Shown in pieces: positions 24,282-34,015 of a stretch of DNA of 64,000 nt. The DNA comes from Patescibacteria group bacterium. Lineage in GTDB: Bacteria > Patescibacteriota > Patescibacteriia > Patescibacteriales > UBA12465. The DNA lies in NCBI GenBank assembly GCA_028692765.1, contig JAQUWT010000004.1:405-64404 (forward strand). The letters are read 5' to 3'. The notes below the pieces were generated by a model. The model saw only the letters and a list, made by a program, of their open reading frames with translations, did no database searches and was not told the origin of the DNA. Made by a program: the position numbers and the translations under genes. The first letter of the stretch is position 1, and each line of letters begins with the position of its first letter.

Positions 24282-25670
24282 CTAAAACTTATCTTGAAAA
24301 TATTTTTTTACCTCATCGGAATTTATTTTAATCTGCTCCATGCTATCGCGCTCGCGTATAGTCAGCTCGCCCTTTTCCAAAGTATCAAAATCAACGGTCA
24401 AACAATAGGGCGTACCGATTTCATCCTGGCGGCGATAGCGCTTGCCGATATTGCCATTATCATCAAATTCACAGCGCCAATCCAGCTTCAAGCTATTATA
24501 AATTTCCCGCGCTTTCTCCACTAATTCCGGCTTGTTCTTCAGCAAGGGGAAAACGGCAATCTTAATAGGCGCTAAGCGCGGCGGCAAGGATAAGACTATT
24601 CTGGATTCATCGCCAACCGCTTCTTCGCGATAGCTTTCCGTCATCACCGCCAAAAAAGTGCGGCCGACGCCAGCGGAAGTTTCGACCACATGAGGAATAT
24701 ATTTCTCGTTATCAACAGGATCGAGATAATTCAAATCGGCGCCTGAAGCCTGGCTGTGAACAGAAAGATCGTAATTACCTCGGGCATGCACGCCTTCTAA
24801 TTCTTTGAATCCGAAAGGAAACTGATACTCAATATCATAAGCTTCCTGCGCGTAGAAAACTAAATTTTCATGCTTATGCCATCGCAAATGCTCCTCCTTG
24901 ATTCCCAAATCAAGATAGAACTGCCAGCGCAGCTGCCGCCACTGTTCAAAATACTTCATATCATCTCCGGGCTTTACAAAATACTGCATCTCCATCTGTT
25001 CGAACTCGCGAGTACGAAAAATAAACTGGCGGGCAGTAATCTCATTACGGAAAGCTTTGCCAATTTGAGCGATACCGAAAGGAACCTTCACGCGCGCGGA
25101 ATTTAAAACATTCTTATAATTCACATAAATTCCTTGGCAAGTCTCGCCACGCAAATAAGTCGGGTCTTTCGACCAGTCGCCGGTAAAATTACCGAGATTG
25201 GACTGAACCAATAAATTAAAATTCTTGCCCGGGGTAAAATCGGAAGAGCCGCAAATAGGGCACTTGATTTTTTCTCGATTCTTTTCAAAGATACCGTTTA
25301 TTTCCTCTTCGGACATCTTTTCATCGGCAAAAATACCAGCTTCTTCCAATAAAGAGTCCAAACGTAAACGGCTGTGGCACTGGCGGCATTCAGTTAAAGG
25401 ATCGGAAAAACCTTTAACATGGCCGGAAGCTTGCCACACTTTAGGGCTCATAAAAATAGCGGCATCCAGACCGACGACATCATCGCGCAGCTGGGTCATT
25501 GCCCGCCACCATTCCTTTTTAATATTATTAGCCAACTCTACGCCATAAGGGCCGAAATCATAGACAGCCGTGAAGCCGTCATATATTTCCGAAGAGGGAA
25601 AAACGAAACCACGGCGCTTGCAAAGGGAAACAATCTGTTCCAAAGAATTATCCGTATCTTTTTTACTCAT
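24282..25670 (-). CDS. glyQS: glycyl-tRNA synthetase (dimeric class II type)
   Basis: 462 aa; RGFVFPSSEIYDG N-terminus, class II core, anticodon-binding C-terminus. Confidence 0.93.
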   Translation of the reverse strand: MSKKDTDNSLEQIVSLCKRRGFVFPSSEIYDGFTAVYDFGPYGVELANNIKKEWWRAMTQLRDDVVGLDAAIFMSPKVWQASGHVKGFSDPLTECRQCHSRLRLDSLLEEAGIFADEKMSEEEINGIFEKNREKIKCPICGSSDFTPGKNFNLLVQSNLGNFTGDWSKDPTYLRGETCQGIYVNYKNVLNSARVKVPFGIAQIGKAFRNEITARQFIFRTREFEQMEMQYFVKPGDDMKYFEQWRQLRWQFYLDLGIKEEHLRWHKHENLVFYAQEAYDIEYQFPFGFKELEGVHARGNYDLSVHSQASGADLNYLDPVDNEKYIPHVVETSAGVGRTFLAVMTESYREEAVGDESRIVLSLPPRLAPIKIAVFPLLKNKPELVEKAREIYNSLKLDWRCEFDDNGNIGKRYRRQDEIGTPYCLTVDFDTLEKGELTIRERDSMEQIKINSDEVKKYFQDKF

Positions 25671-25710
25671 ATATATTAAGGTTGATTATAATTAATCTAA
25701 AATAAAACGG

Positions 25711-27423
25711 CTACATTTCTTCCAGGTAATCAAAACCGAGCAAGGCAAAGCCATTTTCTAAAACTAAGCGGAGCGAACCTAAAAGACCAAGCCGGGCAAA
25801 GCGCAAAGCTGGCTCTGCCTTTAAAATAGCCACTTCATGGTAATAGTCATTAAAAATTTGAGAAAGTTCAAACAGATAGCGCGCCAAAATGGAAGGATCG
25901 CGCTGAAGGCCTGTTTTAGCCACTACTTCCGGAAAGCGCTGCATAGCCAAGGTCAAAGACAGCTCTCGGCGATTGGACAGCATGGAATAATCAGCGTCAG
26001 CTGGCTTTTCTTTCCTTAGGATGCTAGCTAAGCGCGCGCCCGTATATTGCAAATAGGCGGCGGTAAAGCCGTCGAAGCGTAAAGCCTCATCCACATCGAA
26101 AGTAATTACCTTATCAGCGCTGACTTTCAACATTTCGAACTTTAAGGCCGCCACCGCCAATTTTTCTGCTGCGGCCTCAGCGCGTTCAGATTCCCAATCT
26201 TGATGGCGAGAAGATACTTCTTGGCGGGCGCGGCTATAAGCTTCCTCCCAAATCTGGCTATAAGTGATGACATTGCCACTGCGCGAAGACATCATGCCGC
26301 TTTTTAAAGTGACAAAATCATAGCCGAGATGGCTAATTTTGAAAGTCTCACCGGCCAGTTCGAAAATTTTTGCCAACTGCTTAAAATACAAACCCTGGCG
26401 GATATCAACAACATAGACGGATTCATCCAAATGATAATCGTTAAATTTCAACTTAGCCAGAGCCAAATCAGCGACCGGATACAAAGCGGTGCCGTCCGAA
26501 CGGATAATAGGCAAAACACCCAGACCATATTCCTCTAAATCGGCGATAACCGCTCCCTGGCTATTTTTTAATATTCCTTTCTGTAAAAATTCCGCCACCA
26601 TTTTCAGACCGTCACCGATGACTTCGCTTTCATAAAAAATATGTTCGAACTTAACGTCGAAGCGCTGATAGATTTCAGCAAAATAAGCGATACTCCAATC
26701 CCTGGTTTCTTGCCACAACTCGTAATTTTTCCCTTGCCGGCTTTCAACTTCTTTCATTACGGCCGAAATTTCTTTCTTTATCTCTTCTTTTTCAGCGCCT
26801 CCGTCTTCCCGAGCCTCGGCTTGAGACAATAAACCGGAAGCCTCGGCATAGCATTTGCCCAAAAGCCAGCCCTTAGGAGCATCTGAATCTTTATAATTAG
26901 CGCGTTGCCATTGCCACAAGGTCTTAGCGACATGGATGCCAAAATCGTTAATATAAGAAACGGGAATCGCCTGATAGTCATTAAAGGCCAAGATTCTGTA
27001 AACCGCATCGCCAAAAAATAGATTGCGTAAATGGCCGATATGATATTCCTTATGAGTATTGGCGTTAGAATATTCCAGCATTATTCTCTGCTGTCGGCCG
27101 ACAGCCATGCGACCGAAATCATGGCCTGCTTTTTCTATGTCTGACAAAGCATCCCGATTAAACACTCCGGCTTTAAAAAAGAAATTAAGATAGGGACCGA
27201 CTGCTTGGAAAGATTGAATAGCTGCCGGCAAATCCGACTGTTCCAACAATCTAATTTTCTCTTGAGCTAAAGCGGCCGGACTCATCCCCGAACTTTTAGC
27301 TAAGGCAAACAAAGGCAGGCTTAAATCGCCTAACTCCGCGGGTATCGGATAGACGAAATCATCGGCCGAAACCGATAATAAAGAAGCTAATTTATCTTTC
27401 AAGCTGACTAAAAACATAATCAA
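25711..27423 (-). CDS. argS: arginyl-tRNA synthetase
   Basis: 570 aa; HIGH-like YHIGHLRN, MSSRSGN (KMSK-like), DALR-type C-terminus. Confidence 0.93.
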   Translation of the reverse strand: MIMFLVSLKDKLASLLSVSADDFVYPIPAELGDLSLPLFALAKSSGMSPAALAQEKIRLLEQSDLPAAIQSFQAVGPYLNFFFKAGVFNRDALSDIEKAGHDFGRMAVGRQQRIMLEYSNANTHKEYHIGHLRNLFFGDAVYRILAFNDYQAIPVSYINDFGIHVAKTLWQWQRANYKDSDAPKGWLLGKCYAEASGLLSQAEAREDGGAEKEEIKKEISAVMKEVESRQGKNYELWQETRDWSIAYFAEIYQRFDVKFEHIFYESEVIGDGLKMVAEFLQKGILKNSQGAVIADLEEYGLGVLPIIRSDGTALYPVADLALAKLKFNDYHLDESVYVVDIRQGLYFKQLAKIFELAGETFKISHLGYDFVTLKSGMMSSRSGNVITYSQIWEEAYSRARQEVSSRHQDWESERAEAAAEKLAVAALKFEMLKVSADKVITFDVDEALRFDGFTAAYLQYTGARLASILRKEKPADADYSMLSNRRELSLTLAMQRFPEVVAKTGLQRDPSILARYLFELSQIFNDYYHEVAILKAEPALRFARLGLLGSLRLVLENGFALLGFDYLEEM

Positions 27424-27427
27424 ATAA

Positions 27428-28714
27428 CTAAGAAATCTTAATAAATTGGCGCTTGCCCCGCTGGATAATTAAGCCTGGAGACACCGTAATTTCCGCCTGG
27501 CTGTCGGTGAGCGTTTTCATATTATCGGCTAAACCAATCTTGATGCCGCCCTGGTCAACAAGACGGCGCGCCTCCCCTCGGCTGGCGCATAAATTCAAGA
27601 CAAGCAACAAATCGGCAATCTTGTAGGTACCAGCGGGCACGGCTTTGCTTTCCACCTCCTCGGGCATCTCCTTATTCTGAACAGTCTTAATAAAATAATC
27701 TTGCGCGGCATCTGCTTCTTTTCGGCCATGATTAATATTGGTAATCTCCCAGGCGAGTTTCATTTTAGCATCGCGCGGATTCAGCGTGCCCGCAGACAAG
27801 CCCGCTTGGATGTCTTTTATTTCTTCCCAAGGCAAAAAAGTGCATAGCTCAAAAGCAGACGGCAAAACGCCATCAGCCCAAGACATCACTTGGCCGTACA
27901 TATTATTAGGAGTCTCATCCAACATCACGATATTTCCTTCGCTCTTGCCCATCTTTTTGCCTTCGCTGTCTGTTAGAAGCTTAAGCGTCAAAACATCCTT
28001 ATCTTTCTGTTTTAAAGCTTTAAGAAGGTCCCGGCCGCACATCATATTGAATAATTGGTCATTACCGCCGACTTCAACATCGACATCCAAGGCCACGCTA
28101 TCATAAGCTTGGGCGAGAGGATATAAAAACTCATGTAAAAATACCGGTTTTTCTTCTGCCAATCTTTTCTGAAACATATCCCGCTGAATCATCTGCTGAA
28201 CGGTAAAATTAGAAGCTAAACCGATTAAATCTTTGAAGGAAATCTTATCATGCCATTCGTTGTTATACCTCAACTCCGCCGGATTATCACCATTAAAATC
28301 AAGATAGGCGCCGGCCTGCTTTTGAAAATTAACCGCGTTTGCCATCACTTCTTCCCGGCTGAGTTGCTTGCGGGCCGCCCCCTTGTCGGTAGGATCGCCA
28401 ATCATTCCGGTAAAACTACCGATAAGAAAGATGACCTGGTGGCCGAGACGCTGGAATTGAGCCAGCTTAGCCAAAGCGATGGCATTGCCGATATGCAAAG
28501 AAGAAGCGCTGGGATCAAAGCCGCAATATAAACGCAAAACCTCGCCGCTTTTCAGTTTTTTTTCTAGATTTTCCCGATTAGGATAAACTTTTTCAACCCC
28601 CCTGTCCAAAATTTCCAAAATTGAGTCCGGACTAGTATTCACATGAGCCATAAATGCTTGGTAATAATTTATTAAATATGTTATAATGGTAGCAAACCTA
28701 GCCGAATTTTTCAA
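27428..28714 (-). CDS. tyrS: tyrosyl-tRNA synthetase
   Basis: HIGH (SLHIGN), KMSKS-like KKMGKSEGN, C-terminal S4 domain; ATG at 28651 (MAHVNTSPD) is the likelier start. Confidence 0.93.
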   Translation of the reverse strand: MKNSARFATIITYLINYYQAFMAHVNTSPDSILEILDRGVEKVYPNRENLEKKLKSGEVLRLYCGFDPSASSLHIGNAIALAKLAQFQRLGHQVIFLIGSFTGMIGDPTDKGAARKQLSREEVMANAVNFQKQAGAYLDFNGDNPAELRYNNEWHDKISFKDLIGLASNFTVQQMIQRDMFQKRLAEEKPVFLHEFLYPLAQAYDSVALDVDVEVGGNDQLFNMMCGRDLLKALKQKDKDVLTLKLLTDSEGKKMGKSEGNIVMLDETPNNMYGQVMSWADGVLPSAFELCTFLPWEEIKDIQAGLSAGTLNPRDAKMKLAWEITNINHGRKEADAAQDYFIKTVQNKEMPEEVESKAVPAGTYKIADLLLVLNLCASRGEARRLVDQGGIKIGLADNMKTLTDSQAEITVSPGLIIQRGKRQFIKIS

Positions 28715-28736: not shown

Positions 28737-29741
28737 ATGATTATCTTAGTAAAATTAACACAATCTTTTATGTTTTCCTACCGCTTTTTTCTTAAGCAAG
28801 CTTGGAATATTACCAAGCGCTATCGCTATCTCTGGTTTTTCGGACTTTTTGCCGCTCTAACCGCCCTCGGCGGAGAATACCAGATTATCTCCCAAGGTTT
28901 AAATAACAATCCCGGAGGCAGTTTCGTCAGTGTCGGCGTCTTCATGCTCTATAATCTTTTCAACCCCAGTTTCTATGCCGGCATCGGCTCTCTAGCAGCC
29001 AGCAACCCGGCCGCTCTCTGGTCTTTGGTCACAGTTCTGCTCTTAGCCCTGGCCCTGATAATCATCATGGCGTATCTGGCAATCGTTTCTCAAGCCGCTT
29101 TAGTGGAACACAGCGCCCAGATAATATTAAACAAAAAGAAGAAAACCGGTTTAAGCATCCACGAAGGCCTTGTTTTCGGACGTAAGCATTTTTGGAACCT
29201 GCTCGGCCTTAATATCAGCGGCAATATCATTATTACTCTAAGTTTCTTAATTATCAGCCTTCCCCTTGTCTTTCTCTTGATTACAGATGCGGGCGTATTA
29301 GCTTTAGCCTACACCCTGCTGTTTGTTATTTTTGTTCCTATCTCTTTATCTATCGCTTTCATTATTAAATATGCTATCGCCGCCAGAGTCTTAGAAAATC
29401 TGAGTTTTGTCGCCGCGATGGAAAAGGGTTGGAAAATATTTCAAAATAACTGGCTGGTTAGCTTGGAAATGTCTCTGATTCTTTTCTTGATAAACTTTGC
29501 CGTCGGCATCGTGACTCTTGCCGCCATTTCACTTTTCTTCCTGCCTCTTCTATTCCTCTCCCTCCAATTATACCTGCCCCTGCTGACCGCTTTAAGCTTT
29601 ATCCTGACTCTTGCCGCCATGCTGGTAGCCGCCTCTATTCTCAACACTTTCCAGATTTCCACTTGGACGAGCCTTTATATCCACTTGCAAGAAAAGAAGG
29701 GGTTAAGCAAGCTGGAAAGAATCTTCCAGCGCAAACGCTAA
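28737..29741 (+). CDS. hypothetical polytopic membrane protein (334 aa)
   Basis: About 7 hydrophobic segments; no motif recognised. Confidence 0.55.
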   Translation: MIILVKLTQSFMFSYRFFLKQAWNITKRYRYLWFFGLFAALTALGGEYQIISQGLNNNPGGSFVSVGVFMLYNLFNPSFYAGIGSLAASNPAALWSLVTVLLLALALIIIMAYLAIVSQAALVEHSAQIILNKKKKTGLSIHEGLVFGRKHFWNLLGLNISGNIIITLSFLIISLPLVFLLITDAGVLALAYTLLFVIFVPISLSIAFIIKYAIAARVLENLSFVAAMEKGWKIFQNNWLVSLEMSLILFLINFAVGIVTLAAISLFFLPLLFLSLQLYLPLLTALSFILTLAAMLVAASILNTFQISTWTSLYIHLQEKKGLSKLERIFQRKR

Positions 29742-29825: not shown

Positions 29826-32800
29826 ATGAGCGACATCGCCTCGATAGAAAATTTGATTGACCCAGAGGCCGCTAAAGACGAAGACAGCGTCCAGGGTAAA
29901 TTTGCTAAAAAACAGCAGGAAATCAAATTAAAAGAAATAGAAAAACAAACCGAAGAAAATGCCGCCGCTATCGGCCTGCCTTATGTTAATCTCTTCGGCT
30001 TTCCTATCAGCCCGGATGCTTTAGTTCTAATTCCGGAAGCGCGATCGCGCGAACTTAACGCGGTCTGTTTTTTCTATGACGGCAAGAATATTCGCGTCGC
30101 CTGCCTGGAGCCGAACGAAGAAATCGCTTTGGAAATTCAACGCTTGAATGAACAATATTTTGCCGATGCCAAACTATACCTGGTTTCCCAAAACAGTCTT
30201 GACCAGGCTTTTGAAGCCTATAAAGCCGTGCCGAAAATCAAAAAATATGATTCTGGAGTGGAAATAAGCGAAGAAAGCCTGGAAAAATTCAAGCAAGACA
30301 TTGCCAGTTATAAAAATTTAAACGAGAAAATCAACGAAGTCAATGTCAGCGACATTGTCACTTTGTTGCTGGCAACAGCCATTAAGGTCGGTTCCAGCGA
30401 TATTCATATAGAAGCCGAAGAAAATGGAGTCGCTATCCGTTTCCGCATCGACGGCGTTCTTCAAGAAGCGGCGGTAATTGACCGGGAAAAGTGGAAAAAA
30501 ATAGCGACTCGCATGAAAATTCTGGCAAAGGTTAAAATTAATATTTCCAATAAACCGCAAGACGGACGCTACACCATCCACCTTAAAGACGGAAAAATCG
30601 ATGTTCGCTCATCCTTCCTCCCCACCGCCTACGGCGAAAGCGTGGTTATGCGCCTGCTCAATTCCAAAGCGGTTGCCTTGGAATTTGAAGGACTCGGCAT
30701 CCGCCCGGAAATACTGGAAAAATTAAGGAACGAAATCAGCAAGCCTAACGGCCTGATTCTCACCACCGGTCCGACCGGCTCCGGTAAAACTACGACCTTA
30801 TACGCAGTTTTAAATAAGCTTAATCAACCGGGAACCAAGATAGTAACCTTAGAAGACCCGATTGAATATCAGCTAGCCGGCATCAATCAAAGCCAAGTAG
30901 ACGCCAGCAAGGGCTATACTTTTTCCGACGGCCTGCGCTCAATCCTGCGCCAAGACCCCAATGTTATTATGGTCGGCGAAATCCGCGATTTAGAAACGGC
31001 GGAAATATCCGTGCAAGCATCTCTTACCGGACATTTAGTGCTCTCCACTCTGCACACCAATGATGCCGCCGGTGTTATTCCCCGCCTCATCGACATCGGA
31101 GTAAAGCCATATTTTCTCGTCCCTTCAATTAATGCCGTTATCGGCCAACGCCTAGTCAGAAAGTTATGCCCCTATTGCCGGGAGGAACACAATCTCTCCG
31201 CGGAGGAGGAAGAAAAAGTACAAAAAATATTAGCCGTCATTTCTCCGCGCGCCAATATCAATATTCCTTCCAAATTACCGACAATCTATAAGGCCGGTGG
31301 CGGATGCGAAAAATGCAACCACCTGGGATACAAGGGGCGCATCGGTATTTATGAAATATTTACCATGGACGATAACTTAAAACAGCTGACCATTGATAAA
31401 GCACCTTCCTTTAAAATCCTCCAACAGGCCATCGAAAACGGCATGATTACCATGCTCCAAGACGGTGTCTTAAAAGCCATGGATGGTATTACTTCCTTAG
31501 AAGAAGTCTATCGCGTCATTGGTAATTTTGATTATGTCGACGAGCTTTATGATATCGTCATTTCTCAAACTATCGGCCGAGGCGTTAAGATAACAGCCGA
31601 AGAATACGCCCGCGGCCAAGCCCTCACCAAGCACGTCGGCCAAGCCATTAATCTCAGCGACATCCCTTCTAAGGAATTGATTAAAATGATTATGAGCATG
31701 GCCAGTGCCAGCGATGCCGGCGATGTCCATATTGAACCGGAAGAAAACGGAGTAGCGGTTCGTTTCCGCATTGATGGCGTCATGCACGATATTCTGGATT
31801 TGCCTAAAACCAGCTATCTGCCGATTCTTTCGGAAGTAAAAATCTTGGCCGGCTTCGCCACTAACGTCAAGCGAGCGACTTTAGACGGCCGTTTCAGCGT
31901 CTACCTGCCTGAAAAGAAATTTGATTGCCGTCTATCAATCATTTCCGGCGGTTACGGCGAAACGATTGTTATCCGCCTGCTGATTAATTCAGCCGCCTCT
32001 TTAGACTTAGAGAAATTGGGCATCACTTCTGTCGCCAAGAAAGAATTAGACAAAGCGATGACAAAAACAAAGGGCATCATCATCACCACCGGTCCGACCG
32101 GTTCCGGTAAAACCACGACTCTTTACGGTATTCTTAATAAACTCAACAAATCGGATGTTAAAATAATTACCATTGAAGACCCGATTGAATATCAGCTCCC
32201 GGGCATCATGCAAACGCAGATAGACAACGAACATGGCTACACCTTTGCGGCGGCGATGCGCTCTTTGCTCCGGCAGAACCCCAACATCATGATGATTGGC
32301 GAAATTCGCGACGAAGAAACCGCAAAAATCGCCATTGAAGCGGCAATGACCGGACACCTTGTTCTCTCCACTATCCACGCTAACAGCGCTGCCGGTGCCA
32401 TTTCACGTTTTGCCGGCTTGGGCGTGGATAAATCGTCACTGGCCAATGCCATTGAGTTTTCCATCGGCCAGCGCCTGGCCAGAAGAATCTGCCCTCATTG
32501 CAAAATTGAAGATACGCCCAGCCCGGATTTATTGGCGCAAGCTAAATCGATTTTAGCGGGCATAAAAAATAAAGATATAGAAATTCCTAAAACCCTTAAA
32601 TTCTATAAAGGCGCCGGCTGCGAACAATGTAACCACCTGGGCTATAAAGGAAGAGTCGGCTTATATGAAACCATCCCGTCTTCAAATGAAATCCGCAAGC
32701 TCATTCAAAAAGAAGAAATGACCGATTATGACATCGAGCAGGAAGCGATTAATGAAGGCACAGTCAATATATCCCAAGACGGCATCCTCAAAGCTCTAGC

Positions 32801-32840
32801 CGGAGAAACCAGCTTAGAAGAAGTTTTCCGCGTAATTTAA
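29826..32840 (+). CDS. tandem-duplicated PilB/GspE-family secretion ATPase (two complete ATPase modules in one polypeptide)
   Basis: 1004 aa; T2SSE N-terminal domain, then two modules. Each has Walker A GPTGSGKTT (aa 315-323 and 756-764), IEDPIEYQL, GEIRD, LTGHLVLSTLH/MTGHLVLSTIH and a CxxC...CxxC motif. Confidence 0.9.
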   Translation: MSDIASIENLIDPEAAKDEDSVQGKFAKKQQEIKLKEIEKQTEENAAAIGLPYVNLFGFPISPDALVLIPEARSRELNAVCFFYDGKNIRVACLEPNEEIALEIQRLNEQYFADAKLYLVSQNSLDQAFEAYKAVPKIKKYDSGVEISEESLEKFKQDIASYKNLNEKINEVNVSDIVTLLLATAIKVGSSDIHIEAEENGVAIRFRIDGVLQEAAVIDREKWKKIATRMKILAKVKINISNKPQDGRYTIHLKDGKIDVRSSFLPTAYGESVVMRLLNSKAVALEFEGLGIRPEILEKLRNEISKPNGLILTTGPTGSGKTTTLYAVLNKLNQPGTKIVTLEDPIEYQLAGINQSQVDASKGYTFSDGLRSILRQDPNVIMVGEIRDLETAEISVQASLTGHLVLSTLHTNDAAGVIPRLIDIGVKPYFLVPSINAVIGQRLVRKLCPYCREEHNLSAEEEEKVQKILAVISPRANINIPSKLPTIYKAGGGCEKCNHLGYKGRIGIYEIFTMDDNLKQLTIDKAPSFKILQQAIENGMITMLQDGVLKAMDGITSLEEVYRVIGNFDYVDELYDIVISQTIGRGVKITAEEYARGQALTKHVGQAINLSDIPSKELIKMIMSMASASDAGDVHIEPEENGVAVRFRIDGVMHDILDLPKTSYLPILSEVKILAGFATNVKRATLDGRFSVYLPEKKFDCRLSIISGGYGETIVIRLLINSAASLDLEKLGITSVAKKELDKAMTKTKGIIITTGPTGSGKTTTLYGILNKLNKSDVKIITIEDPIEYQLPGIMQTQIDNEHGYTFAAAMRSLLRQNPNIMMIGEIRDEETAKIAIEAAMTGHLVLSTIHANSAAGAISRFAGLGVDKSSLANAIEFSIGQRLARRICPHCKIEDTPSPDLLAQAKSILAGIKNKDIEIPKTLKFYKGAGCEQCNHLGYKGRVGLYETIPSSNEIRKLIQKEEMTDYDIEQEAINEGTVNISQDGILKALAGETSLEEVFRVI

Positions 32841-32897: not shown

Positions 32898-33473
32898 ATG
32901 ATTAACGCCGCTTTTATCACTAAATTAAAAAATGACTACCGCCAACGCGAACAAGAGCGCCGACAGATAATCAGCCGCTCCAACGACGTGCTGTTCCAAG
33001 CTAAAAAAACCATCTTTGCCCTCCAGCGTGAAGAGCTGGCTCTAGCTGAAGAAAAGTTAAAAAGCATGGAGGCGGTTCTGAAAAAAATGGAAAAAGACTT
33101 CAGTCCTAACCGCATCAGAGAAGAGGGCGCTTACCATGCCGCCGCTGAAGAATATGTTGAGGCCAAGACTCTGGCGGCAATCGTATCCGGTAAAAAAATT
33201 AATGCCGTTACCGGCTTGCATCTCGGTTATGACAGCTATCTCGGCGGACTCTGCGATTTAATCGGCGAAATGGTACGCTTAGCCACTAATCGAGCCGCCA
33301 AAGGAAAATATGAAAGCGTGGCAGAACTGAAAGAAAAAGCGGAAGAGATAATGAATAGCCTGCTTGATTTTGACTTAACCGGCTATCTCCGTACCAAATA
33401 CGATCAAGCGCGCGGCCATTTACGCAAATTAGAACAAATGGCTTATGAAATCCGCTTGCGCAAAGACAAATAA
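32898..33473 (+). CDS. translin/TRAX-family protein (C3PO-like nuclease homologue)
   Basis: 191 aa, all-helical. AAEEYVEAKTL resembles TRAX QEYVEA. SYLGGLCDLIGEMVRLATN...LRTKYD...KLEQMAYEIRLR resembles TRAX DYLLGVADLTGELMR and the translin C-terminus. Confidence 0.7.
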   Translation: MINAAFITKLKNDYRQREQERRQIISRSNDVLFQAKKTIFALQREELALAEEKLKSMEAVLKKMEKDFSPNRIREEGAYHAAAEEYVEAKTLAAIVSGKKINAVTGLHLGYDSYLGGLCDLIGEMVRLATNRAAKGKYESVAELKEKAEEIMNSLLDFDLTGYLRTKYDQARGHLRKLEQMAYEIRLRKDK

Positions 33474-33973
33474 TGACTATGCTCATCGCCATCGCCGCTG
33501 ATTTGCACGACAATCTCGCTAACTGGCATAAATTCAAAGAATATTCAAAAAAGCAGGGTATTAATACCCTGCTTTTCTGCGGCGATTTATGCAACAGCCA
33601 AACTCTAAAAAAAATAAATTCCGAATGGCCGGGAAAGATATTCCTAATTGCCGGCAATCAGGAACTGTATGACCAAGACAAAGTTAATAAGCTATCAAAC
33701 ATCAATTTTTTGGGACGCTATGGAAAGGTAAAAATAAATAATTTAAATATAGGTTTGATTCATGAACCTGAATATAAAGAAAGAACCATCGGAGAAAATC
33801 AAGAACTTAATTATTTATTTTATGGGCATACTCATAAACCTTGGCTAAGCCGAGACCGCGGCGTCATAATTGCTAATCCGGGAACGCTTGGCGGGGTTTT
33901 TTATAAAGCTAGTTTTGCCGTTCTTGACACCGATACCGGCAAATTGGAGCTAAAAATTTTAGAAAATATTTAA
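33473..33973 (+). CDS. YfcE/MJ0936-type metallophosphoesterase
   Basis: 166 aa; motifs AADLHDN, CGDL, AGNQE, GHTH; the start overlaps the translin stop (TAATG). Confidence 0.8.
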   Translation: MTMLIAIAADLHDNLANWHKFKEYSKKQGINTLLFCGDLCNSQTLKKINSEWPGKIFLIAGNQELYDQDKVNKLSNINFLGRYGKVKINNLNIGLIHEPEYKERTIGENQELNYLFYGHTHKPWLSRDRGVIIANPGTLGGVFYKASFAVLDTDTGKLELKILENI

Positions 33974-33983
33974 AGTCCTAATT

Positions 33984-34015
33984 AAAAAACTCTCCTTTTA
34001 AGGAGAGCTTTTTTA
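33984..34015. terminator. bidirectional terminator
   Basis: aaaaaaCTCTCC-ttttaa-GGAGAGctttttt. Confidence 0.65.

Follow-up and report, generated by a model that had tools for sequence, protein, structure and literature searches.

In the present work, we have analyzed a 64-kb stretch of DNA from a Patescibacteria group bacterium (contig JAQUWT010000004.1 of assembly GCA_028692765.1, positions 405 to 64,404 of the forward strand; hereafter the window, numbered from its first letter), focusing on a 191-aa gene (32898..33473, + strand) and on the phosphodiesterase gene that directly follows it (33473..33973, + strand). As judged from its modeled fold, the first of these encodes a translin-superfamily protein of the prokaryotic C3PO type that is TRAX-like rather than translin-like, and our preferred reading, which we consider probable, is that this single gene specifies an archaeal-type C3PO endonuclease, cotranscribed with a PilB ATPase and the diesterase through a lineage-specific operon structure. 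The juxtaposition of the TRAX-like and phosphodiesterase genes looks like a lineage-specific operon arrangement, and not a conserved two-enzyme machine. The window protein is a new bacterial example, from the candidate phyla radiation (CPR), of a known TRAX/C3PO kind, and its architecture departs nowhere from that of the archaeal enzymes. The fold, residue conservation, gene order, and phylogenetic range reported below were all established computationally. A first-pass annotation of this DNA had proposed that the two proteins form a translationally coupled, two-component RNA processing module; the layout of the two open reading frames (ORFs), their coordinates, and the TAATG overlap between them that it described are confirmed here.

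Family, Fold, and Active Site of the TRAX-like Protein

The Pfam family Translin (PF01997) matches residues 20–189 of the protein with E = 6.3e-19 (69.2 bits, compared to a cutoff of 25.9), and the match is full-length, spanning profile positions 2–205 of 205. In a sequence search of the PDB, the best match is the C3PO of Nanoarchaeum equitans (NeC3PO, 5e-9), followed by Drosophila translin (3e-7), the C3PO of Archaeoglobus fulgidus (AfC3PO, or AfTRAX; 6e-6), and human TRAX (9e-4), with human translin also among the closest solved relatives. A single-chain AlphaFold2 model built on 127 diverse homologues is all-alpha, with seven helices and a mean predicted local distance difference test (pLDDT) score of 97.9, and when this model was compared to the PDB using Foldseek, translin/TRAX/C3PO entries made up all 50 of the top matches listed, with template modeling (TM) scores of up to 0.90. 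Specifically, we obtained TM scores of 0.84–0.87 for NeC3PO (root-mean-square deviation, rmsd, 2.2 Å) and 0.80–0.85 for AfC3PO, query-based TM scores (TMq) of 0.88–0.90 for the human TRAX chains 3pja_J/K/L (rmsd 2.2–2.8 Å), and a TMq of ~0.77 for the human translin chains (rmsd ~4.7 Å). Since the model superposes better on the TRAX than on the translin chains, we describe the protein as TRAX-like. The translin/TRAX homology that the first-pass annotation had proposed, and had suggested checking against Pfam, is thus borne out by profile, PDB matches, and fold alike, and the motifs it quoted in support (AAEEYVEA, YLGGLCDLIGEMVR, and LRTKYD...KLEQMAYEIRLR) are all present in the 191-aa translation.

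In NeC3PO, Glu82, Glu85, Asp117, and Glu121 bind two cations, as established by both structure and mutagenesis, and the substrate is contacted by Ser26, Lys34, Arg124, and Arg163/164; the catalytic acidic residues of human TRAX (HsTrax) are Glu123, Glu126, Asp193, and Glu197 (PMC5100593). The NeC3PO tetrad aligns to E85, E88, D120, and E124 of the window protein, and NeC3PO S26, K34, R124, and R163 align to S28, K36, R127, and R165, such that the tetrad and the Ser/Lys/Arg/Arg contact residues are identical in the two proteins. The position of NeC3PO R164 is taken by T166, with the near-invariant K167 adjoining. Across an alignment of 127 homologues that are 28–46% identical to the window protein, K36, E85, D120, G123, E124, R127, and R165 do not vary at all and E88 reaches a conservation of at least 90%, and the full Glu/Glu/Asp/Glu set, the conservation of which had been put forward as a check on the original assignment, is therefore kept. 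Such conservation is in line with an enzyme that is active and under strong purifying selection, and not with a binding-only translin.

A profile hidden Markov model built from the 127 homologues and run against the six-frame translation of the 64-kb window detects one translin-family gene, and finds no second, non-catalytic translin paralogue there. Separately, we note that six NCBIfam "equivalog" models (PRK14562.1-x, "haloacid dehalogenase superfamily protein") match the TRAX-like protein, with values of up to 1e-19, but that all of these scores lie below the respective cutoffs, and that archaeal translin-family proteins appear to have been misnamed in these models.

Comparison with Known C3PO and TRAX Enzymes

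Among the closest known systems is the C3PO of N. equitans (NEQ131; PDB 5jr9, 5jrc, and 5jre), which, like the window protein, is encoded by a single gene, is ~190 aa in length, and adopts a seven-helix fold. The two proteins nevertheless share only 23% identity, one being archaeal and the other bacterial, and they differ in the motif of the C-terminal helix, which is FDLRRKLD in N. equitans, FDFRNGELRKK in Woesearchaeota and eukaryotes, and LTGYLRTKYDQA in the CPR clade. The A. fulgidus enzyme (PDB 3zc0 and 3zc1) is likewise the product of a single gene, forms a homo-octamer, and cleaves duplex RNA, with ~20% identity to the window protein. Eukaryotic TRAX, which is part of the translin–TRAX hetero-octamer (PDB 3pja and 3axj), has the fold in common with the window protein, and the acidic catalytic tetrad listed for HsTrax (PMC5100593) has its counterpart in the window motifs EEYVEA and CDLIGEMVR. 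However, eukaryotic TRAX depends on translin as a distinct second subunit, at a 6:2 ratio, whereas one family member is seen in the window; the identity is 19–20%, and bacteria offer no RNA interference context. As a side observation on this architecture, seven of the proteins retrieved (P0175, P0206, P0213, P0234, P0250, P0253, and P0259) are eukaryotic-looking, 368–573 aa long, and made up of two or three translin-family regions, of which the C-terminal one carries the E-E-D-E set; these appear to be natural translin–TRAX fusions.

Distribution and Phylogeny

A first search yielded 1,132 clusters at 90% identity, and among the 120 listed, nearly all are 191 aa long, the named matches being bacterial metagenome-assembled genomes (MAGs), mostly of Patescibacteria (under the names Patescibacteria, Falkowbacteria, and Parcubacteria). 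An exhaustive search of representatives at 50% identity gave 887 families at E ≤ 1e-3 and 428 at E ≤ 1e-10. A profile of more distant ("A-type") sequences retrieved 1,133 further clusters, with names including Uhrbacteria, Magasanikbacteria, and Pacebacteria, and a profile of "B-type" sequences matched Woesearchaeota (DPANN archaea) and oomycete translins. The nearest genome to the window is that of "Parcubacteria group bacterium ADurb.Bin115", at a TRAX identity of 97%. With its clusters in Patescibacteria (Falkow-, Uhr-, Magasanik-, and Pacebacteria) numbering more than 1,100, the translin family can no longer be called rare in bacteria, as had been assumed in the first-pass annotation. The accompanying remark that the family is uncharacterized in bacteria stands, as we found no paper on translin in CPR: our search for literature on translin in CPR/Patescibacteria returned nothing relevant. 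In the part of the literature that treats published surveys of TRAX-like nucleases (PMC5100593, citing Gupta et al. 2012), Chloroflexi is the only bacterial phylum named. Public pipelines already label such CPR genes as translin family, as seen from the names of the database matches.

The CPR sequences carry a C-terminal signature of the form LTGxLRxKxDQAK, compared to FDFRNGELRKKxD in archaea and eukaryotes, and a neighbor-joining tree separates CPR from archaea and eukaryotes in 114/200 bootstraps (57%). Because the split reaches just this value, we regard a separate bacterial (CPR) translin clade as only suggested by the sequences. The closest relatives outside this clade are the DPANN Woesearchaeota. 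We also note that the record titles of many loci in our set (L004, L007, L012, and many more) read "uncultured Gammaproteobacteria bacterium", and in some cases "Bacillota" or "Clostridia", despite a clearly CPR-type locus; the taxon labels of these species-representative MAG records look unreliable.

The Neighboring Phosphodiesterase

The product of the downstream gene matches the Pfam family Metallophos_2 (PF12850) with E = 1.5e-22 (80.7 bits, cutoff 27) and, just above the cutoff, TIGR00040 (yfcE; 58.7 bits, compared to 56.25), and its best PDB match is MJ0936 from Methanocaldococcus jannaschii (4e-8). The assignment of the partner to the YfcE/MJ0936 type made in the first-pass annotation therefore holds. 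The metal-site motifs are D10-x-H12, G37-D38, G61-N62, H97, and G118-H119-x-H121, and D10, H12, D38, N62, H97, H119, and H121 are kept in 109/109 homologues from related loci, such that the enzyme looks active as far as its residues can tell. It resembles MJ0936 and Escherichia coli YfcE in being a small, single-domain binuclear protein with all metal ligands in place, although its sequence similarity to MJ0936 is modest (E = 4e-8).

Two positions bear on the type of ester that such an enzyme can cleave, as the His of the GNH[DE] motif is required for cyclic phosphodiesterase activity and an Arg in motif II for monoesterase activity (PMC2190708). MJ0936 and YfcE are without both residues, cleave simple diesters only, and hydrolyze neither 2′,3′- or 3′,5′-cyclic nucleotides nor monoesters (PMC2190708). 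The window phosphodiesterase lacks both as well: the residue at the position of the GNH His (63) is Gln, as compared to Asn in MJ0936 and Cys in YfcE, and across 109 sequences it is A, L, G, I, M, or Q and never His, with no Arg among the commonest residues at the motif II positions (39–43) of the 109 homologues. From this residue pattern, we would assign the protein as a diesterase-only, MJ0936/YfcE-type binuclear metalloenzyme.

Conservation of the Gene Pairing

We compared gene order across 73 loci from species-representative genomes, obtained with the window protein as the query and belonging to one clade, and 80 loci from metagenomes, these being the best 80 found with a 21-sequence alignment (43–66% TRAX identity). 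ORFs were called in each locus and clustered, and adjacency was scored by TRAX identity band; more distant neighborhoods were taken from 12 single-locus look-ups, including that of P0125. At TRAX identities of at least 58%, the phosphodiesterase lies directly downstream in 74/74 loci and PilB directly upstream in 76/76. The corresponding counts are 11/48 and 41/50 at 50–58% identity, and 4/11 and 9/11 at 40–50%, and an adjacent phosphodiesterase is found in 0/11 of the more distant loci (Uhr-, Magasanik-, and Pacebacteria, three other CPR groups, one short contig, and four Woesearchaeota). In the 50–58% band, the phosphodiesterase is non-adjacent but within 5 kb in 18 loci, while in five there is none in the 4 kb or more that follow TRAX.

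The neighbors of the translin gene in the 11 distant loci are instead a P-type ATPase with a glycosyltransferase, a Mur ligase, DUF192, a flavokinase, AspRS-like synthetases, and peptidase M29. In one of these, Woesearchaeota locus L155, a close phosphodiesterase homologue (E = 3.5e-37) lies two genes (1 kb) from the translin gene on the opposite strand, a proximity within chance expectation over eleven loci. In divergent loci of the bacterial set, a Trp_Tyr_perm-like permease lies between TRAX and the phosphodiesterase, and the latter is then found with a Memo+AMMECR1 fusion and an inositol monophosphatase (IMPase). Furthermore, within the same genomes, the phosphodiesterase diverges faster than TRAX, PilB, and UvrA (~42% compared to ~60–70% identity). 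The recurrence across genomes that the first-pass annotation had named as decisive for its module hence falls from 74/74 through 11/48 and 4/11 to 0/11, and does not extend beyond one clade.

At TRAX identities of ~50% (L093, L102, L108, L112, L114, L121, L126, L128, and similar), the genes for the permease, phosphodiesterase, Memo+AMMECR1 fusion, and inositol monophosphatase form a block, and in metagenome loci of the L093 type, TRAX sits at the junction between the permease–phosphodiesterase block and a block formed by PilB and its upstream neighbor, c3.

The Putative Transcription Unit

The gene directly 5′ of the TRAX-like gene (29826..32840, + strand) encodes a tandem-duplicated PilB/GspE-type ATPase of 1004 aa, in which an N-terminal MshEN domain is followed by two T2SSE domains arranged head-to-tail (Pfam T2SSE, E = 4e-233 in two stretches; TIGR02533 and TIGR02538 above cutoffs). 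Sister lineages carry a single PilB of ~567 aa at the equivalent position directly upstream of the TRAX gene. As the counts above indicate, this ATPase is the most persistent neighbor of TRAX, beyond the phosphodiesterase. Upstream of PilB lies c3 (28737..29741, + strand). The polytopic membrane protein of 334 aa that it encodes is matched by neither Pfam nor NCBIfam, even at permissive thresholds; the homologues of c3 fall into a cluster of 98 members and, where a locus extends far enough upstream, are mostly found ahead of PilB.

A promoter-like site, TTGGTA-18-TATAAT with a TG element, is located upstream of c3 (28658..28687, + strand) and is identified from its match to the consensus alone (10/12 positions). 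The sole + strand terminator-like site outside coding sequence across the putative unit follows the phosphodiesterase gene (33990..34007), where an intrinsic-terminator-like hairpin with a 7-bp stem, including four G–C pairs, is followed by the T run CTTTTTTAAT; no such site was found on the + strand in either the c3–PilB or the PilB–TRAX interval. The gaps are 57 nt between PilB and TRAX, and at most 5 nt between TRAX and the phosphodiesterase. Based on the placement of the promoter- and terminator-like sites, the likely transcription unit comprises c3, the tandem PilB, TRAX, and the phosphodiesterase, closed by the terminator-like hairpin.

The TRAX stop codon TAA (33471–33473) and the ATG at 33473–33475 have one base in common, giving the TAATG overlap. 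From this ATG, the phosphodiesterase would be 166 aa long, but in 83/90 homologues the ORF starts at a Met that aligns with Met3 of the window protein (ATG 33479), from which it would be 164 aa. The real start may thus be 5 nt past the TRAX stop, with ATG 33473 not being the true start. The distance from the TRAX stop to the phosphodiesterase start is −4 to +5 nt in 67/90 loci of the relatives, and, given these distances, we consider the coupling to be real and the TAATG overlap itself not to be a conserved feature. Of the translational coupling asserted in the first-pass annotation, the close physical coupling of the two genes is supported.

Proposed Mechanism and Alternative Readings

NeC3PO acts as a nuclease on both single- and double-stranded RNA and DNA, is Mg/Mn dependent, and gives a minimum product of 3 nt; the need for its four acidic residues has been proven by mutation (PMC5100593). 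It follows an RNase H-like two-metal mechanism, with a water molecule as the nucleophile at phosphorus and the 3′ oxygen as the leaving group (PMC5100593), which implies product ends of 3′-OH and 5′-phosphate, with no cyclic phosphate. By analogy, from which we derive the assembly, the metal dependence, the substrates, the product ends, and the role in the cell, identical TRAX-like subunits of the window protein would assemble into a hollow, closed helical barrel, as in the homo-octameric N. equitans and A. fulgidus enzymes. A subset of subunits would take up the "TRAX" conformation, in which E85, E88, D120, and E124 would hold two Mg2+/Mn2+ ions. Single-stranded RNA (and, less well, DNA) would be held by S28, K36, R127, and R165 and cut inside the cavity, to give short oligonucleotides with 3′-OH and 5′-phosphate ends, and the cellular role would likely be the housekeeping clearance or trimming of RNA fragments.

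Several points weigh against this reading. The nuclease activity of the bacterial members is a prediction, and the homo-octameric barrel is modeled on NeC3PO and AfC3PO. The role in clearing RNA fragments is borrowed from studies of eukaryotes. A second translin-family gene could be present elsewhere in the genome, our count covering the 64-kb window alone. Finally, the TRAX–phosphodiesterase coupling in all 74 close relatives, with the genes often overlapping or 1–5 nt apart, is tight enough to be compatible with a functional link between the two enzymes.

Such a link could take the form of a two-step degradation, in which TRAX would cut single-stranded RNA or DNA to oligonucleotides of at least 3 nt and the diesterase would convert these to mononucleotides, in a nanoRNase-like nucleotide salvage by a bacterium with reduced biosynthesis. 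We consider this unlikely. In its favor are the adjacency in close relatives, stop-to-start distances mostly between −4 and +5 nt, the 18 further loci with a phosphodiesterase within 5 kb, the homologue 1 kb from the Woesearchaeota L155 translin gene, NeC3PO products of at least 3 nt, and the cleavage of TMP-pNP, a nucleotide diester model substrate, by MJ0936 and YfcE. However, the adjacency drops away in other lineages, with sister lineages inserting a permease between the genes and placing the phosphodiesterase with Memo/AMMECR1 and IMPase instead. The phosphodiesterase is also less well conserved than TRAX in the same genomes (~42% compared to ~60%), and the natural substrate is known for neither MJ0936 nor YfcE.

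The persistence of PilB as the upstream neighbor across all three identity bands, in both its single and tandem forms and also at the P0125 locus, where gene order is kept at 42% TRAX identity, raises the idea that TRAX, with or without the diesterase, processes nucleic acid imported through a PilB-driven type IV pilus/competence apparatus. This we regard as improbable. A T2SSE ATPase 3–4 kb from translin in two Woesearchaeota loci and the cleavage of single-stranded DNA by NeC3PO are in line with it, but PilB is found beside translin in none of six other CPR lineages, and the surroundings of the unit contain no further pilus or competence genes (~21.6–46 kb annotated, in which the genes are housekeeping or unassigned). 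Furthermore, NeC3PO prefers RNA over DNA by a factor of at least 10, and vertical inheritance within one clade can explain the conserved order. An extended version, in which c3–PilB–TRAX, joined by the diesterase in part of the clade, constitutes a nucleic-acid scavenging system (pilus import, C3PO cutting, and conversion to nucleotides by the diesterase), is likewise a long shot; if true, it would give a first physiological role to both a prokaryotic C3PO and an MJ0936/YfcE enzyme.

It is highly improbable, in turn, that the phosphoesterase removes 3′-phosphate or 2′,3′-cyclic-phosphate ends left by the TRAX nuclease, as the first-pass annotation had suggested. The healing of such ends is indeed carried out by some metallophosphoesterases, among them CthPnkp and lambda phosphatase, and gene adjacency is the one further observation in its favor, but the window enzyme does not belong to this end-healing type, being without the His and Arg determinants (GNH[DE] His in 0/109 homologues and no Arg in motif II). 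Taken together, this residue pattern, the inability of MJ0936 and YfcE to hydrolyze cyclic nucleotides (2′,3′- or 3′,5′-) or monoesters, and the NeC3PO mechanism, which implies 3′-OH/5′-phosphate products, argue against the proposed processing of phosphate or cyclic-phosphate ends. What stands of the two-component RNA module is hence the identity of its two proteins and their close coupling, and what does not is the recurrent pairing and the end chemistry.

We give hardly any credence to a non-catalytic, translin-like nucleic-acid-binding protein: translin proper has the same fold and binds single-stranded DNA and RNA without cutting, but here the whole acidic tetrad is in place, with little or no variation across the 127 distant homologues, and the model fits TRAX chains better than translin chains.

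Returning to the reading as a single-gene C3PO endonuclease, what makes it of interest is how broad the CPR clade is and how persistently PilB and TRAX are linked, and not the proposed module. Work on prokaryotic TRAX-like nucleases has so far been confined to two archaeal proteins serving as structural models, and a distinct, well-conserved clade in Patescibacteria with an intact catalytic site would provide a large comparative data set, as well as a bacterial entry point to the role of single-gene C3PO enzymes. It also corrects the tempting view of the neighboring phosphodiesterase as an obligate partner. The practical gain is modest: translin family is the label that public pipelines already give to the gene, and its architecture is that of the archaeal enzymes.

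The Wider Neighborhood

The recurrent neighbors c3, c9, c10, and c11 were considered as type IV pilus genes (PilM/PilT/PilC/PilD) and rejected by domain searches: they encode a membrane protein without a match, the Trp_Tyr_perm-like permease, the Memo+AMMECR1 fusion, and the inositol monophosphatase, respectively. Neither TRAX, the phosphodiesterase, nor c3 gave a meaningful match in a PADLOC search for anti-phage defense. Just upstream of the unit on the opposite strand (window 24282–28714, − strand), genes for a class II GlyRS-like synthetase, ArgRS, and TyrRS lie in a row, and TsaD, YchF, and several tRNA genes are also close.

In another CPR group (L154, 910–1843; L164, 5001–5940), the translin gene overlaps a downstream flavokinase gene of 120–122 aa, and riboflavin kinase is present in archaeal TRAX–SepRS loci (PMC5424206). 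In many archaea, the TRAX gene is found in an operon with SepRS (PMC5424206), which is not the arrangement in the window. A class II AspRS-like synthetase gene lies immediately 3′ of the translin gene in two Woesearchaeota loci (L156, 4001–5869; L157, 4001–6819), and the position of archaeal TRAX beside aminoacyl-tRNA synthetase genes (SepRS, and AspRS-like in Woesearchaeota) hints at a tRNA-related function. Finally, two Woesearchaeota loci (L157/L158, 1–750) carry an archaeal T2SSE-type ATPase, together with several small genes, 3–4 kb upstream of translin.

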